From the IMG/VR virus record IMGVR_UViG_3300012041_000027, positions 1 through 48,677 of that record: a DNA stretch of 48,677 nucleotides. One strand, written 5' to 3'. Source of the DNA: a virus. Its lineage: Duplodnaviria; Caudoviricetes. This document shows, one piece after another, positions 1 to 48,677 of this stretch; within the stretch, counting starts at the first letter, position 1, and each line of letters begins with the position of its first letter. The notes beneath the pieces are model-generated. The model had not been told where the DNA came from, made no database searches, and was given only the letters and a program-made list of their open reading frames with translations. Both the position numbers and the translations under genes were made by a program.

Positions 1-212
1 AACGATTCCAAATCAGCTTCTTCCTTATCCCTCATGTCAATGATGGACTTGTAAGCGTTGTGTTTGGCTCTCATGACACTCATCTCCGCTTTGTAAACGT
101 AATGAGCTTCACGAATGTTCAATCCGTTAGCTGATGCAAAAGCAGCTTCGCCTTTACCTTCAGCAATCAAGATAGCCAAATGAGTTAGCGCGTCGTTACG
201 CATCTGATTCAT
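1..212 (-). CDS. Small early protein, 5' part. Continues across the junction into 48647-48677 (80 aa total, MNQMRNDALTHL...ESF|EEATFYKSK)
   Basis: ATG at 210-212 with AGAGGA RBS; frame stays open through base 1 into base 48677 and stops at TAA 48647-48649. Confidence 0.8.
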   Translation of the reverse strand, partial: MNQMRNDALTHLAILIAEGKGEAAFASANGLNIREAHYVYKAEMSVMRAKHNAYKSIIDMRDKEEADLES

Positions 213-239: not shown

Positions 240-271
240 CAGAATTAAGGCCACTAAGTAAACTCACTAGT
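240..271 (-). repeat. 5' arm of long-range stem 3 (pairs with 48615-48645)
   Basis: cagaattaaggccactaagtaaactcactagt is the near reverse complement of actagtgagcttatttagtggcctaatcctg. Confidence 0.9.
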
Positions 272-300: not shown

Positions 301-329
301 ATCTCGTAGGCTCTATTAGTGCCCTGATT
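301..329 (-). repeat. 3' arm of long-range stem 2 (pairs with 653-682)
   Basis: atctcgtaggctctattagtgccctgatt vs aatctagggcactaacagaacctacgagat. Confidence 0.9.
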
Positions 330-652: not shown

Positions 653-682
653 AATCTAGGGCACTAACAGAACCTACGAGAT
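653..682 (-). repeat. 5' arm of long-range stem 2
   Basis: Reverse complement of 301-329 with two G-U pairs and one bulge. Confidence 0.9.
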
Positions 683-716: not shown

Positions 717-749
717 AGGATTGTGGATTCTATGAAGTCTACCAATCTA
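717..749 (-). repeat. 3' arm of long-range stem 1 (pairs with 1477-1509)
   Basis: aggattgtggattctatgaagtctaccaatcta vs tagactggtagactttagagaacccacaatcct. Confidence 0.9.
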
Positions 750-760
750 AGGTTAACTAA

Positions 761-1456
761 CTAGTTCTCGTCCTCTTCGTCCTCTTCCGATTCATCATCC
801 GATTCATCATCGGAATCATCATCGGATTCGTCATCATCGTCAGGAACGTCGATGTCATCCAATTCCGGTGACTCATCAGAAGAAGAAACTTCCTCATCTT
901 TCGCCGGTTGAAGAACCACCCCGTTTTCATCAACGAGTGAAGAAGCCCAAAGACCTTTGGCAATCTGGTCCTTGATGAATGAACGCTGTTGTTCTGCCAA
1001 TTCCTCAAAGGACGGAACATGGACAGCATGCGTTCTCTTCATGAAAGCTTGCGTTTGAATCCAAATGCTTGCAAGATTCTCCGCATGCTTTTTGTCCATC
1101 GCAAGTCTCTGTTCAATGATGAATCGAACAAGACCGGACTTCTGTGATTGGTCTTGAATAGACTGGGAACGCCTAATCAAGTCGGCACCACGAAGGATAG
1201 CTTCCTTGAGAAGCCTGTTGGACAATCCCGTTTTTTCGACTGCGGTAATGCAGTCTTTTACGGTGACTTCCGGCGCATCCAAGAAGTCATAATCCCACTT
1301 CTTGACAACACGCGAAACAACCTTGCCTTGCTTGTTCTTTCGCGGCTTGGGAATACCAAAGGTTGTTACCTCTGTAGTTCCCTTTACGCCCTTACCACGA
1401 CGTGCAACGATACACGCGTGAAGTTTGAGAATCGCGTTCTTTACAATCTCACCCAT
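761..1456 (-). CDS. Early hypothetical protein, basic N-terminus and long Asp/Glu tail
   Basis: 231-aa ORF with AGGTG RBS; no family recognised. Confidence 0.85.
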   Translation of the reverse strand: MGEIVKNAILKLHACIVARRGKGVKGTTEVTTFGIPKPRKNKQGKVVSRVVKKWDYDFLDAPEVTVKDCITAVEKTGLSNRLLKEAILRGADLIRRSQSIQDQSQKSGLVRFIIEQRLAMDKKHAENLASIWIQTQAFMKRTHAVHVPSFEELAEQQRSFIKDQIAKGLWASSLVDENGVVLQPAKDEEVSSSDESPELDDIDVPDDDDESDDDSDDESDDESEEDEEDEN

Positions 1457-1476: not shown

Positions 1477-1509
1477 TAGACTGGTAGACTTTAGAGAACC
1501 CACAATCCT
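1477..1509 (-). repeat. 5' arm of long-range stem 1
   Basis: 33 bp with 2 G-U and 2 true mismatches against 717-749. Confidence 0.9.
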
Positions 1510-1623
1510 ATTCGCTTGCTACTATTCCGTTGGATACCACGTTATCACAACACGGTGACTCACAAGCATAGCTGTTACAATCATGTCTCACGACATTAGC
1601 TGACGGCCAAAACAGCGGGCCAA

Positions 1624-1643
1624 TATTCGGTTGTCAAAGAGCT
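1624..1643 (-). promoter_or_regulatory. boxA-like antitermination element
   Basis: Minus strand AGCTCTTTGACAACCGAATA resembles rrn boxA (E. coli TGCTCTTTAACA). Confidence 0.65.
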
Positions 1644-1850
1644 ATGGCTAAAGCTATCGCTAGGAAAAGCGTTCATGCTCCAACGGTAGAACGAGAGCAT
1701 CCGTCTTAACGTTAATGCTAGGCTCCATTACTGCACTCTACAGTAACCATCCAACATCAACCATCAACCAACATGGACATCATACACCAGATAGGCCGCC
1801 AACCTAATGCATAGTTCTAATGATAGGATAAGCCATGCTAATGACCACCT

Positions 1851-30100: not shown

Positions 30101-30181
30101 AGACCGGGCAATAGATTAATATTCCCAGGAAATAACTTAGTGCCTAGAGGTAATAGGTTAATCTATGACCAACAGCCCTAA
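24131..30181 (+). CDS. Giant internal virion / polyvalent protein (2016 aa) with HExxH motif
   Basis: Last gene of virion operon; Pro-rich linkers; KHEAAH..GHGMDW. Confidence 0.75.
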   Translation: MPQEPFVYPGQTRTTPTPGLLGRTRPTQSTQQTTPFGRRKYDVKDSETGKEYEIEWEGPNDPTEDEIKEMLSIDDKGPYYGERAGKSHGWLADQLWNAGKKVIDTGKGLLESTSLGETARMGDELARVREEDAKAKAAGASAVSSLEAKRKAESDEYFGKVNKALRNPFAIGEMAGNALDPTGVFMGTTSAVHDSYESFKRGDVGGGVVSGGLAVLPAFGLRHEIKKAGIPKNLLPPDNPVVPPVTPVGGNPAKANALPPIEKLPGAPEPNIRKQGQHSIGVKVEDVPTYTEQGYTIIDTFPDGSVLMEPPPRSRFGPTPGFGRATVEELGRPLTPFEEHMRKKKDEEGGLPPVEPPTEPPTPPTPPVAPVTPLTQTGPFGAGRPAPPVEPVEPPTTTTPVAGGPTINYGRTDNIYSIRNQGSQFFVEHPSLQKPAGPFRSYNQADKWINDQVNPFEQFPVEPPTPKQEPVPPVTPVESPVGQPVPPVEPVNPLLDRIRELDEAGAPDYKYKELLSPKQQKWGGKVSWRQQAIDEASVTTSATKAIGKAEATTRSKVAILKAKAEAAKAKLKALNAKLNPPGSDKGSVSAELLTAGLIDDATVERFHNWAKGLGASLSDANLLHYLKVVEKRDDISKALQGNALLPPESKADRIPVVKDEPFRPGPKARDYIEQQRNNSYGSNQHDVQRSPFEQRNYEDFLRSLDWKVEPIKGQRISPREMGDAARDVTLKDVDVMGHTGESLVPRTEKAVRSHVIPTEEQVRKLLRDNEAIADRDLLSADVAANRYLAGEGGDPMVYREMAIDSLRKVKEAGFKDFSKHELAVYDQVVEKLDNGSKTINDLRRSGPDVEVPRSGFGRLLDVFKAKEEPIKRDKFGLPALEVPDNVPKESFKEFVARTMDGMTPERFNRLPGDIRNGAAELYRESQAKVNKEPGTVTDINKLKPKFQARRSKYGVFTSDPAEMIRRMKDSFKEVDNIDEAHFITPDGKMYNHLRPLDSHGSSMREIGIDIYEALEKANIIRVGAPNAIEVGMPISKTQAKLIHDMMMSNKDPNMYVEVNSERVQRQWKAFDERATPEAIREWTNAQFEPSNTFAPKPKQPQVPKSIEELEAAWEAGDPKKLKPKYSTNLTKEEKLVLNKALDRRLAQAKAQGDTKAIASIGEARKLINGPQPPSIAQQVKDHAVKVVADNKAMHEQMQVKNKPSGMKHEPVLADPGGKLTPDERAWMEKHPFVQDLMRFHSDLIHHIMEVTGSIWAEGISHVGLSLDPGSHGMSIYNPLTGKHTILFNSFEEIFNTPDPRQAARESVTTAKHEAAHAGEGGNAGDVAFTITDQLDPRFKDFYNDLVNQVKEGGEAGGAISGHGMDWVYRLGEIYGKYGIERTAEAAKRLESIFTKGGRSGGYNPEISNLLRLYQESRRRAETTPDVFAGKGIQQKSPKAWKGFVSGNSGNAGKGTTSKPVTPPSKPVPPRAVVGKAGLLNNRKFSRKNPIFGKIFESLIANRNAELAAGIPPKFSTSFVNAEAQLRQAGYLYSGKPNAQGVLPAGVPAGYERITGGLGKFSGKYAHPEIRKVLEDYLSPTKTGLFNSAVEAVGKAKSLAMSSGLIPNKPLFTAHGFSIASPFSGRAVMEGGLKRWGQAVRYGLNPKLAASHLKAERADIIRATREDNYNPNVDTSIGHGITKPFNTTTGKYGTGKFKKWTNWLAEKQHKHWEGPLFEQMLPALKWQGWKSKLADFQKKGMSRAEAGKAASRVVNDHYSGYNTDTLMETKDFKTVASLTFLAPDWLRSAKNMGINVPKSLITELRGKGTPESRAYLKAGGRMLAAYTAANLLQKSLTGEYMVENDTKDKFTLFLNKEKTSYLNPFGSSIDFFKYPFLMAAAASTDGEKFSKGAGEILSEAAQNRLSPLGRLGTEFITGEDYKGEANLARTTDRFGNYIPATTRGANTFSQLINFGPPQVAQPWNVATGRATPLEGILKVGEMPFGFRKPKPRPGNRLIFPGNNLVPRGNRLIYDQQP

Positions 30182-30402
30182 AAGTCATTGATAAACTCTA
30201 CATTCTCCGCTTTCCAACCTTTTGGTCCTTTAACTGGTTGGAACTGAACTACTGGACCTTTAGGGATATTGGGAGGACTTATCATTATAAGTTCTTCCCA
30301 ATCTCCCTTATAGTCCGCAAAATGGAAAAAATACTCTACTCCATTCTCGTCAAGAATAAAGCCATAATGTGAGGGTTTAATTGTCTTTACCCTTCCGAGC
30401 AT
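30178..30402 (-). CDS. Cold-shock domain protein
   Basis: GRVK..YGFI..EYFFH..KGPKG..AENV (RNP1/RNP2-like). Confidence 0.9.
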   Translation of the reverse strand: MLGRVKTIKPSHYGFILDENGVEYFFHFADYKGDWEELIMISPPNIPKGPVVQFQPVKGPKGWKAENVEFINDF

Positions 30403-35756: not shown

Positions 35757-35769
35757 TCTCCTTGTGAAG

Positions 35770-35853
35770 TGCGACGGGAGAGACTCGAACTCTCAATCCC
35801 TTACGGGCCTAAGATTTTAAGTCTTATGCGTATACCGATTCCGCCACCGTCGC
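35770..35853 (-). tRNA. tRNA-Leu, anticodon UAA; CCA not encoded
   Basis: Acceptor GCGACGG/CCGTCGC-A, D-arm TGGCGGAATCGGTATACGC, anticodon arm TAAGA-CTTAAAA-TCTTA, long variable arm, T-arm GAGAG-TTCGAGT-CTCTC. Confidence 0.95.
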
Positions 35854-47235: not shown

Positions 47236-47344
47236 ACTAAACACTCCTTTATCAAAGACCTAGACCGCCATTCCGGAGCGTATCACATTGTTAACTTAAA
47301 GTCAAATCGGCCTTTAATTTAGTTATCTTATCTATCCGCTCTAC

Positions 47345-47639: not shown

Positions 47640-48075
47640 GTTTAGTGAATACAGAAATTTGGTTGTTTACTGGTTACTATCTGGTTACTTACTGGTTACT
47701 TACTGGTGCTTTACTTCCCTCTAGGCTACCCGTAAGTTGTTGAGCCTGAACAAGTTAGCCGGCTTTCCCCTAGTATAGCATATTCTTATCCTTATGTCAA
47801 GTGTCCTATTTTGAGGTCAGGGGGTTGTTGGTTTTGTATTGTTTATATTTTTTTTTTGTTTTTTTATATAAAAATATAAAAACCCCACCAACCCACCATG
47901 TAAATATTACACTAATAGCATAGGGTAAGAAAGTGACGTATTCCCTCTACTTAGCTTAACTCCTTTAGAATCAACAACTTACAGCTAGTGTATAGGGAAG
48001 TAACAGGCCAGTAAATACACAGAATGTATCTAGTAAGTAACCGGAAAACAACAAAATTTATGTAACAGTGAAACT
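47640..48075. repeat. Large diverged palindrome with 11-bp tandem repeats; candidate origin
   Basis: Nested inverted blocks around an AT-rich centre near 47860. Confidence 0.75.
47772..47800 (-). promoter_or_regulatory. Sigma70 early promoter
   Basis: TTGACA-17 bp-TATACT with extended TG. Confidence 0.85.
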
Positions 48076-48175: not shown

Positions 48176-48224
48176 AAAAAAATAGGGGAATCACTACCCA
48201 ATTAAGGATAGCAATTCCCCTATT
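48176..48224 (-). terminator. Intrinsic terminator closing the stem-flanked operon
   Basis: AAUAGGGGAAUUGCUAUCC-loop-GGGUAGUGAUUCCCCUAUUUUUUU; wobbles fit the minus strand. Confidence 0.85.
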
Positions 48225-48614: not shown

Positions 48615-48645
48615 ACTAGTGAGCTTATTTAGTGGCCTAATCCTG
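48615..48645 (-). repeat. 3' arm of long-range stem 3 (pairs with 240-271 across the junction)
   Basis: Near reverse complement of 240-271. Confidence 0.9.
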
Positions 48646-48646
48646 A

Positions 48647-48677
48647 TTACTTGCTCTTGTAGAACGTGGCTTCCTCG
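48647..48677 (-). CDS. 3' end of the junction-spanning ORF that starts at 212
   Basis: In frame with 1-212; ends with TAA. Confidence 0.75.
   Translation of the reverse strand, partial: EEATFYKSK

Follow-up and report, generated by a model that had tools for sequence, protein, structure and literature searches.

At the head of a short operon in the viral genome analysed here lies a conserved boxA of the type found in bacterial rRNA (rrn) operons. The operon is laid out like a pre-rRNA and is probably an early one. The window, i.e. the whole 48.7-kb stretch of DNA that was analysed (48,677 nt), corresponds to the complete virus record and has genes for a terminase, a tail fibre, a polymerase and a helicase. 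Since the ORF that starts at 212 on the minus strand crosses position 1 to 48677 and continues on the other side of the record ends to its stop at 48647, the record is circularly permuted. The boxA-headed operon is located on the minus strand, spans ~2.3 kb and is ~66% coding (Table 1). Rfam detects no rRNA in the window, tRNA only, and the units enclosed by helices are ORFs. No Pfam or PHROG family matches gene 2. DNA contigs of three runs match the window over the boxA region with no differences, at sparse cover.

Table 1 Features of the boxA-headed operon and of its surroundings, in the order of transcription; the tRNA gene is added at the end.
Feature	Position	Strand	Remarks
Likely promoter	1779..1807	-	-10 TATGAT (1784-1779), -35 TTAGGT (1807-1802), 17-nt spacer; from alignment to L406
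Folded 5' leader	1643..1772	-	boxB-like position; closing helix 1770-1764/1651-1645, inner stem 1746-1728
rrn-type boxA with 3' tail	1624..1642	-	G[CTG]TCTTTGA[ACT]AAC[CT][GA]AATA; sole exact copy in the genome
Non-coding spacer, 114 nt	1510..1623	-	folding at chance; no counterpart seen in relatives
Helix 1, 5' arm	1477..1509	-	33 nt, 88% complementary to 749-717; boxC-like TTGTGGG (1505-1499)
Gene 1, 231-aa 'RRGK' protein	761..1456	-	N-terminal basic beta-hairpin followed by a helical core and an acidic tail
Helix 1, 3' arm	717..749	-	29 Watson-Crick and 2 G-U pairs with 1509-1477
Helix 2, 5' arm	658..682	-	25 nt, 92% complementary to 325-301
Gene 2, ~68 aa	433..639	-	ORF, no family match
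Helix 2, 3' arm	301..325	-	23 Watson-Crick and 2 G-U pairs with 682-658
Helix 3, 5' arm	248..271	-	partner arm 48638-48615 reached across the contig ends; 22 Watson-Crick and 1 G-U of 24
Gene 3, 80 aa, first part	1..212	-	frame resumes at 48677, stop 48647
Gene 3 end and helix 3, 3' arm	48615..48677	-	stop 48647; arm 48638-48615
Gene 4, 71 aa, and gene 5, 45 aa	48242..48587	-	ORFs outside any helix
Intrinsic-terminator-like hairpin and T run	48181..48224	-	closes the ~2.3-kb operon
Separate near-consensus promoter	47800-47772	-	beyond the operon terminator
tRNA-Leu (TAA), single	35769-35853	-	only tRNA gene

The preliminary description of this DNA had noticed AGCTCTTTGACAACCGAATA on the transcribed strand ahead of the first stem arm. 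The motif is indeed there, at 1643-1624 (-), 114 nt ahead of the arm (1509-1477). Judged from this one sequence, the boxA pattern could be a chance match. The 12-nt form GYTCTTTRAMAA has one match in the window, and at least one match is also obtained in 12 of 100 shuffled sequences. We consider boxA as real because it is conserved in relatives. A search with the capsid protein gave 79 viral loci, and the records behind 40 of them were searched. These records were scanned with TCTTTGAMAACYRAA, one mismatch being tolerated and the reversed pattern being used as a control. Matches were found in 14 of the 40 records versus 2 of 40 with the reversed control; three of the 14 (G023, G024 and G035) are one identical sequence. 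The matches in G006 and G040 are off-site and were dropped. A variant boxA was found in G015 by a profile scan. Nine of the 15 near-complete records have a leader boxA and it is absent in the other six (G018, G021, G028, G030, G036 and G040).

In the capsid tree, the window falls within a 100/100 clade of 12 rows, from which G013 was omitted because of its cut capsid gene. Conservation in related phages, named in the preliminary description as a way to check the motif, is observed in this tight clade: eight of the 12 members have both boxA and helices, with boxA syntenic, on the same strand and present once per genome. Three members (G005, G007 and G008) have helices without boxA, and the region is apparently uncovered in G010. 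Apart from these eight rows, and including more remote kin, boxA is found in G013, in G019, in G022 and in the sequence common to G023, G024 and G035. Alignment of 12 boxA sites shows 14 invariant columns out of 19, flanking columns being mostly at 4-6/12; this invariance is partly built in, as the profile sites were partly selected by pattern and the relatives share ancestry. The first G and the last TA, which do not belong to the search pattern, are invariant in 12/12 sites. The sequence 3' of boxA is unconserved across the aligned sites. A metagenome search with the gene-1 family identified 13 loci, six of which are the window, duplicates or loci without upstream DNA. Among the seven loci with upstream DNA, five have boxA, L411 has a variant at most and L417 has none. 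The strand of boxA is that of the downstream genes in all members. No tandem copies were found in the relatives searched; there is one boxA per genome, always promoter-proximal. In the window, a boxA core without the tail is also visible at 47249-47260 (-), where it closely follows a possible promoter and abuts a ribosome binding site. Conservation of this core as a second boxA was looked for and not found.

The boxA of rrn operons recruits NusB, NusE, NusA and NusG as well as SuhB and is involved in antitermination, co-transcriptional folding and RNase III processing. We compared the phage word with its bacterial counterparts. Among ~7,200 loci with the 19-nt pattern in bacterial genomes, 120 were examined, giving 33 16S leaders and 17 16S-23S spacers; 36 of the remaining loci are too short to place and 34 are located elsewhere. 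The carriers of the word belong to Acidobacteriota, Myxococcota, Bdellovibrionota, Nitrospira, alphaproteobacteria, mycoplasmas and others. With such a spread over many bacterial phyla, the word gives no indication of the host. Capsid relatives were found neither among cultured phages nor in bacterial genomes, the polymerase has distant matches only, and a lipoprotein-like ORF has no named homologue. A search of 401 genomes from the phylum to which a Vicinamibacterales record belongs gave best matches that mostly correspond to a low-complexity acidic repeat, and none is host-indicating. As far as the published excerpts go, the boxA sequences of B. subtilis (NusB-binding) and M. xanthus resemble the phage word, and a GAUCUUUGAAA-type boxA is bound by B. 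subtilis NusB (PMC13753749). For the rrn complex, an excerpt of PMC10250234 describes boxA alone as sufficient. According to the available excerpts, the complex needs boxA, resists Rho and may bring boxC to its partner.

In rrn operons, RNase III cuts the leader-trailer helices and a substrate of ~22 bp is needed (excerpt of PMC3867540). A set of 12 bacterial operons contains ten boxA-bearing 16S leaders, and in seven of these the leader-trailer helix begins with boxA or its tail. As in bacterial operons, an outer helix starting from the boxA tail encloses the whole array in five phage relatives (G002, G012, G015, G019 and G022). In the phage outer helices, pairing begins only from ~+11, in the tail, and the invariant 5' core is unpaired. 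Protein binding is favoured over pairing because this core stays outside the outer helices. In the window, no outer helix from the boxA tail is above background (best score 8.2), and a candidate pairing of the tail with 48251-48243, scoring at background, was rejected. A boxC-like word is located 25-29 nt after the boxA start in four of 11 boxA genomes (G003, G017, G019 and G022), which is close to the rrn spacing. The corresponding distance amounts to 137 nt for the window and reaches ~203 nt for G009 and G013. The window fails the rrn boxA-boxC spacing, in which boxC follows boxA by 18-19 nt, its first helix arm being 133 nt from boxA. Outside bacterial rrn operons, the extended boxA is also seen ahead of ORFs that resemble, from their translations, excisionases, integrases or recombinases, as well as ahead of a CRISPR-like repeat array and of a cas-like ORF (L259, L266, L287, L299, L314, L324 and others in L255-L334). 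Some Acidobacteriota and delta-proteobacterial genomes have 5-19 near-copies of the extended boxA.

The likely promoter of the operon was positioned by alignment to L406, which has a homologous leader and whose promoter is TTGACA-17-TATTAT. The -35 box of the window is degenerate, with two matches out of six. The distance from the end of the -10 box to boxA is 136 nt in the window and 139 nt in L406. We infer a transcription start near 1772. Sigma70-type promoters are found 53-121 nt 5' of boxA in G014, G017, G019, G022 and G024 and 139 nt 5' of it in L406, and promoters are apparently tandem in several relatives. Because promoters and a folded leader precede it, boxA is likely transcribed, downstream of the hairpins, in rrn order. 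The preliminary description had proposed another -10 element, GTGCAGTAATGG at 1736-1725, with the same flanks as the promoters at ~39100 and ~40004. The letters and the GTGC..GG flanks are as described, and the promoter role has to be abandoned. The hexamer, AGTAAT, has no T and A at its first two positions, the promoter scan did not list it, and its counterpart in the L406 alignment is the 3' arm of a hairpin. Region 1725..1736 (-) is most likely the 3' arm of a conserved GAG-loop hairpin of 8-9 bp, TTACTGTA-GAG-TGCAGTAA in the window and TTAATCTA-GAG-TAGATTGA in L406. Compensatory changes are observed between the two.

This hairpin belongs to a folded leader that closes, as a long hairpin, immediately 5' of boxA. 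The folding z of region 1772-1643 is -2.34, with six of 200 shuffles equal or better, and that of the L406 leader is -1.68. In the leader consensus, nine of 27 pairs are changed on both sides, as counted on two sequences from which the structure itself was derived. A structured leader had already been proposed, but between boxA and the first stem. The folded leader is instead found 5' of boxA. The letters gcttg/caagc (1567-1563/1518-1514) and ccgt/acgg (1555-1552/1530-1527), on which that placement relied, are present, and their pairing is not retained as there is no excess folding (z = -0.02 for 1510-1622 and +0.63 for 1460-1725). Rfam reveals no credible family for the leaders, and the upstream hairpins have no common loop sequence across the clade. 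A sigma54-type promoter is absent in the window. Motifs of the sigma54 -24/-12 type are seen 26-111 nt 5' of boxA in G003, G009, G012 and G015, where there is no clear sigma70 promoter. Their scores on a -24/-12 consensus are 9-11 out of 12, the background for at least 9 being ~2 per 10,000 positions. In G013, an ECF-like GGAACC-N16-GTCTAA was spotted by eye ~100 nt 5' of boxA. The clade may swap host promoter types ahead of one operon.

Downstream of boxA, helices of 33, 25 and 24 bp surround three genes of the window, one helix around each gene. Comparable helices are found in none of seven control stretches of the window and once in 10 shuffles. A strand-neutral search in 14 genomes gave 53 helices, 43 of which were automatically classed as gene-enclosing, window helix 2 being placed in the other class. 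On the transcribed strand, the 43 gene-enclosing helices contain 80 G-U versus 18 A-C and the other ten 15 versus 22, counts that are non-independent since the genomes are related. The excess of G-U over A-C (80:18) argues for gene-enclosing helices acting as RNA. A boxC-like TTGTGG register is common to their 5' arms, boxC being defined as in an excerpt of PMC10250234. With 24-36 bp, the arms are long enough for RNase III, as compared with a 22-bp substrate (excerpt of PMC3867540). Our analysis suggests that gene-enclosing helices are probably RNase III sites. Up to six helices per operon are found among relatives, and the two arms of one helix are 290-730 nt apart with a whole gene between them. 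The genes located between the arms are not the same in all relatives, and arms that resemble each other can surround different genes.

Helices or the RRGK gene are found without boxA in G005, G007, G008 and L417, and with a variant boxA at most in L411. Conversely, G023, G024 and G035 have boxA without gene-enclosing helices. Thus, boxA is not needed for helices, since G005, G007 and G008 keep them without it, and the two modules are separable because each occurs without the other in some relatives. In the genomes compared, they appear usually to travel together. In the boxA-less G005 (L239), G007 (L018), G008 (L237) and L417, as well as in L411, long hairpin-rich leaders are observed before the first helix. 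No credible Rfam match was obtained for those of G005, G007 and G008. These leaders could be alternative RNA antiterminators. G009 and G013 (L084 and L085:1320-1497 (-)) contain a strongly folded insert of ~175 nt between boxA and the first helix, with z of -5.4 and -4.8. The insert is alignable between both genomes and has no Rfam match. It is possibly an undescribed small RNA at the position of an rrn spacer element.

Within the operon, constancy is highest for the RRGK gene, with 82 relatives at E<=0.001. Its product has no Pfam or PHROG family. The model has a pLDDT of 84.6 and the protein is predicted to be folded. There is no Atlas match above 0.9, and Foldseek returned nothing at E<=0.001 in the PDB (searched with a first, weaker model) or in viral models. 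A wide structure search gave a best Z of 6.0 over 55 residues. These failures to match do not establish a new fold. No N-like family was found among 40 proteins compared with PHROGs or 22 compared with Pfam, many small ORFs having no family. A cold-shock-domain protein (Pfam CSD, E 3e-8) is encoded at 30178-30402 (-), at the end of the replication operon. From its domain, it is a possible RNA chaperone.

The preliminary description had suggested that the phage mimics an rRNA operon to express its first genes. A boxA-headed, rRNA-like first transcript remains the best account, in view of synteny, of the rrn word, of the helices and of the outer helix in five relatives, while the promoter and the place of the leader are revised as explained above. 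We consider it fairly probable that boxA, behind a folded leader, loads host NusB-NusE, NusA and NusG as well as SuhB without a phage N protein, at the head of a short early operon whose helices are cut by RNase III. Host polymerase would start near 1772. With the leader hairpins folded, boxA would stay open and would load the Nus complex. Thanks to this complex, host RNA polymerase would run fast and resist Rho along a transcript of which about one third is non-coding. The two arms of each gene would pair and RNase III would cut mid-helix, yielding single-gene mRNAs with ends still paired. The released mRNAs are proposed to be protected because their ends stay paired. In this scheme, we infer Nus recruitment, RNase III cutting and absence of a phage antiterminator. 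More tentatively, and with some doubt, the operon could be a pre-rRNA mimic dedicated to the first-injected genes, in which the rrn complex joins the arms, mRNAs are end-sealed and long-lived, cassettes are swapped, and many unrelated phage groups use the device.

Other roles of boxA have to be weighed against host-only Nus loading. boxA might work with a phage protein, like a nut site with lambda N, the partner being the RRGK protein or the cold-shock protein encoded at 30178-30402. The constancy of the RRGK gene, the basic N-terminal motif of its product and the hairpins ahead of boxA would fit such a partnership. We find it unlikely, since a folded structure is predicted for the RRGK protein, unlike the small disordered N proteins (excerpt of PMC8632103), and since the two elements dissociate: RRGK occurs without boxA in G005, G007, G008 and L417, and boxA is present in G019, G022 and G024, where tblastn found no RRGK gene. 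Moreover, the hairpins are 5' of boxA, which is the rrn order, and their loops are unlike across the clade. A repressive or sensing role as at suhB, in which Nus binding would cut translation or aid Rho termination and thereby tune expression to the host, recalls the boxA of the suhB and hisG mRNA leaders, which can repress (excerpts of PMC5725501 and PMC12360218). Several relatives indeed have their first start codon just 56-85 nt past boxA. However, the first gene is found at distances of 56-255 nt from boxA across relatives, and the succession of promoter, hairpins, boxA, boxC-like arm and long helix is the rrn layout, unlike suhB; we give this role little credence.

An abundant first transcript could also act as a decoy that titrates NusB-NusE or RNase III and starves host rRNA synthesis. 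The near-perfect rrn boxA, the apparently tandem promoters of several relatives and the presence of up to six helices per operon are compatible with titration, but a single promoter-proximal boxA per genome, with no tandem copies, fits action in cis and makes the decoy improbable. The word might instead owe its retention solely to a stalk for RNase III processing to which it belongs, or be a remnant, with no Nus binding. The pairing of boxA with the trailer in seven of ten bacterial 16S leaders and the loss of boxA in several relatives point in this direction. Against it, phages pair the boxA tail only, and in many of them, including the window, no partner strand was found, the core being invariant nonetheless; this explanation seems quite improbable to us. 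Finally, the arms might be DNA sites for recombination or excision of swappable gene cassettes, boxA being unrelated. The variable genes between arms and the like arms around unlike genes could be understood in this way. This is highly improbable given the 80:18 ratio of G-U over A-C on the transcribed strand, the lack of joints or inversions in the DNA contigs of three runs (at sparse cover) and the lack of a recombinase among 40 proteins scanned.

Host-only Nus loading on a helix-bearing operon can be compared with known systems. Like a bacterial rrn operon, the phage operon has a likely promoter, predicted hairpins, the same 19-nt boxA, a boxC-like 5' arm and helices of 24-36 bp around units, to which five phage relatives add the outer helix from the boxA tail. 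In contrast to rrn operons, the phage units are protein genes, one boxA serves up to six helices, and boxA can be lost with the helices being kept. The window also differs by its first arm at 133 nt from boxA and by the outer helix not being seen. As in lambdoid and mEp021-type nut sites, at least in the excerpts of PMC11893012 and PMC8632103, a phage boxA near an early promoter would recruit NusB-NusE. Unlike at nut sites, boxA is not followed by a conserved boxB loop in the phage, we recognised no N-like protein, and the hairpins precede boxA. The operon also ends at a terminator-like hairpin of its own, beyond which a separate promoter is located. CRISPR-leader and suhB boxA (excerpts of 10.64898/2026.07.09.737519 and PMC5725501) are similar in that boxA is used outside rrn with host factors only. 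Here, by contrast, boxA is phage-borne and tied to gene-enclosing helices.

Early mRNAs of SPO1 and SP82 are processed into units by host RNase III, and the sites in these phages and in T7 are local hairpins between genes. As proposed for the operon described here, T7 early mRNAs are cut by host RNase III, and paired ends aid stability (excerpt of PMC3867540). The present helices differ from those of T7, SPO1 and SP82 by their distant arms, by the enclosure of a whole gene and by their position behind boxA. Early antitermination without a phage protein is also known in HK022 put (excerpt of PMC12360218). There, the put RNA structure acts directly on RNA polymerase, whereas the phage element carries the host boxA word. 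In the open-licence literature, we found no description of an rrn-like boxA together with gene-enclosing helices in a phage.

The 19-nt word is present in ~410 viral stretches. Among the first 80 of 121 viral loci (82 matches), none is beside an rRNA landmark and 62 are non-coding according to a rough test. A long helix (score of at least 18) follows the word in 16 of 64 full-length viral loci versus one of 64 upstream controls. A few of these loci belong to the clade of the window. If the proposed mechanism is true, lytic phages that adopt the layout of an rRNA operon can rely on the host alone both for processive antitermination and for the processing of their mRNAs, a route separate from lambda N and HK022 put, and NusB and RNase III would be host factors for these phages. 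The operons would also provide natural protein-coding substrates for the open question of whether the rrn complex is mainly an antiterminator or a long-range pairing chaperone. The clade offers natural variants with boxA and helices, helices only or boxA only, and end-paired mRNA cassettes could serve as a tool for stable expression.

Several elements were observed around the operon. A 108-nt imperfect inverted repeat (47650-47757/47957-48064) surrounds the promoter at 47800 together with an A/T tract. It probably acts at the DNA level, as an origin or a terminus, because similar post-operon elements in relatives are without G-U bias. On the other side, 5' of the operon promoter, region 1830-2050 of the window contains repeats and small hairpins. 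The matching region of relatives has a common ATGGAAC word and a G-rich run, and is near the contig start in G002. Region 1830-2050 is possibly a genome end. In G002, region C1:1-1754 is repeated at the contig end, over 1,754 nt and with 99.7% identity, from -601 to +1153 around boxA. This repeat, seen in one contig only, holds the promoter, boxA, the cassettes and the terminator. It may be a long terminal repeat with the first-injected genes, or an assembly overlap.
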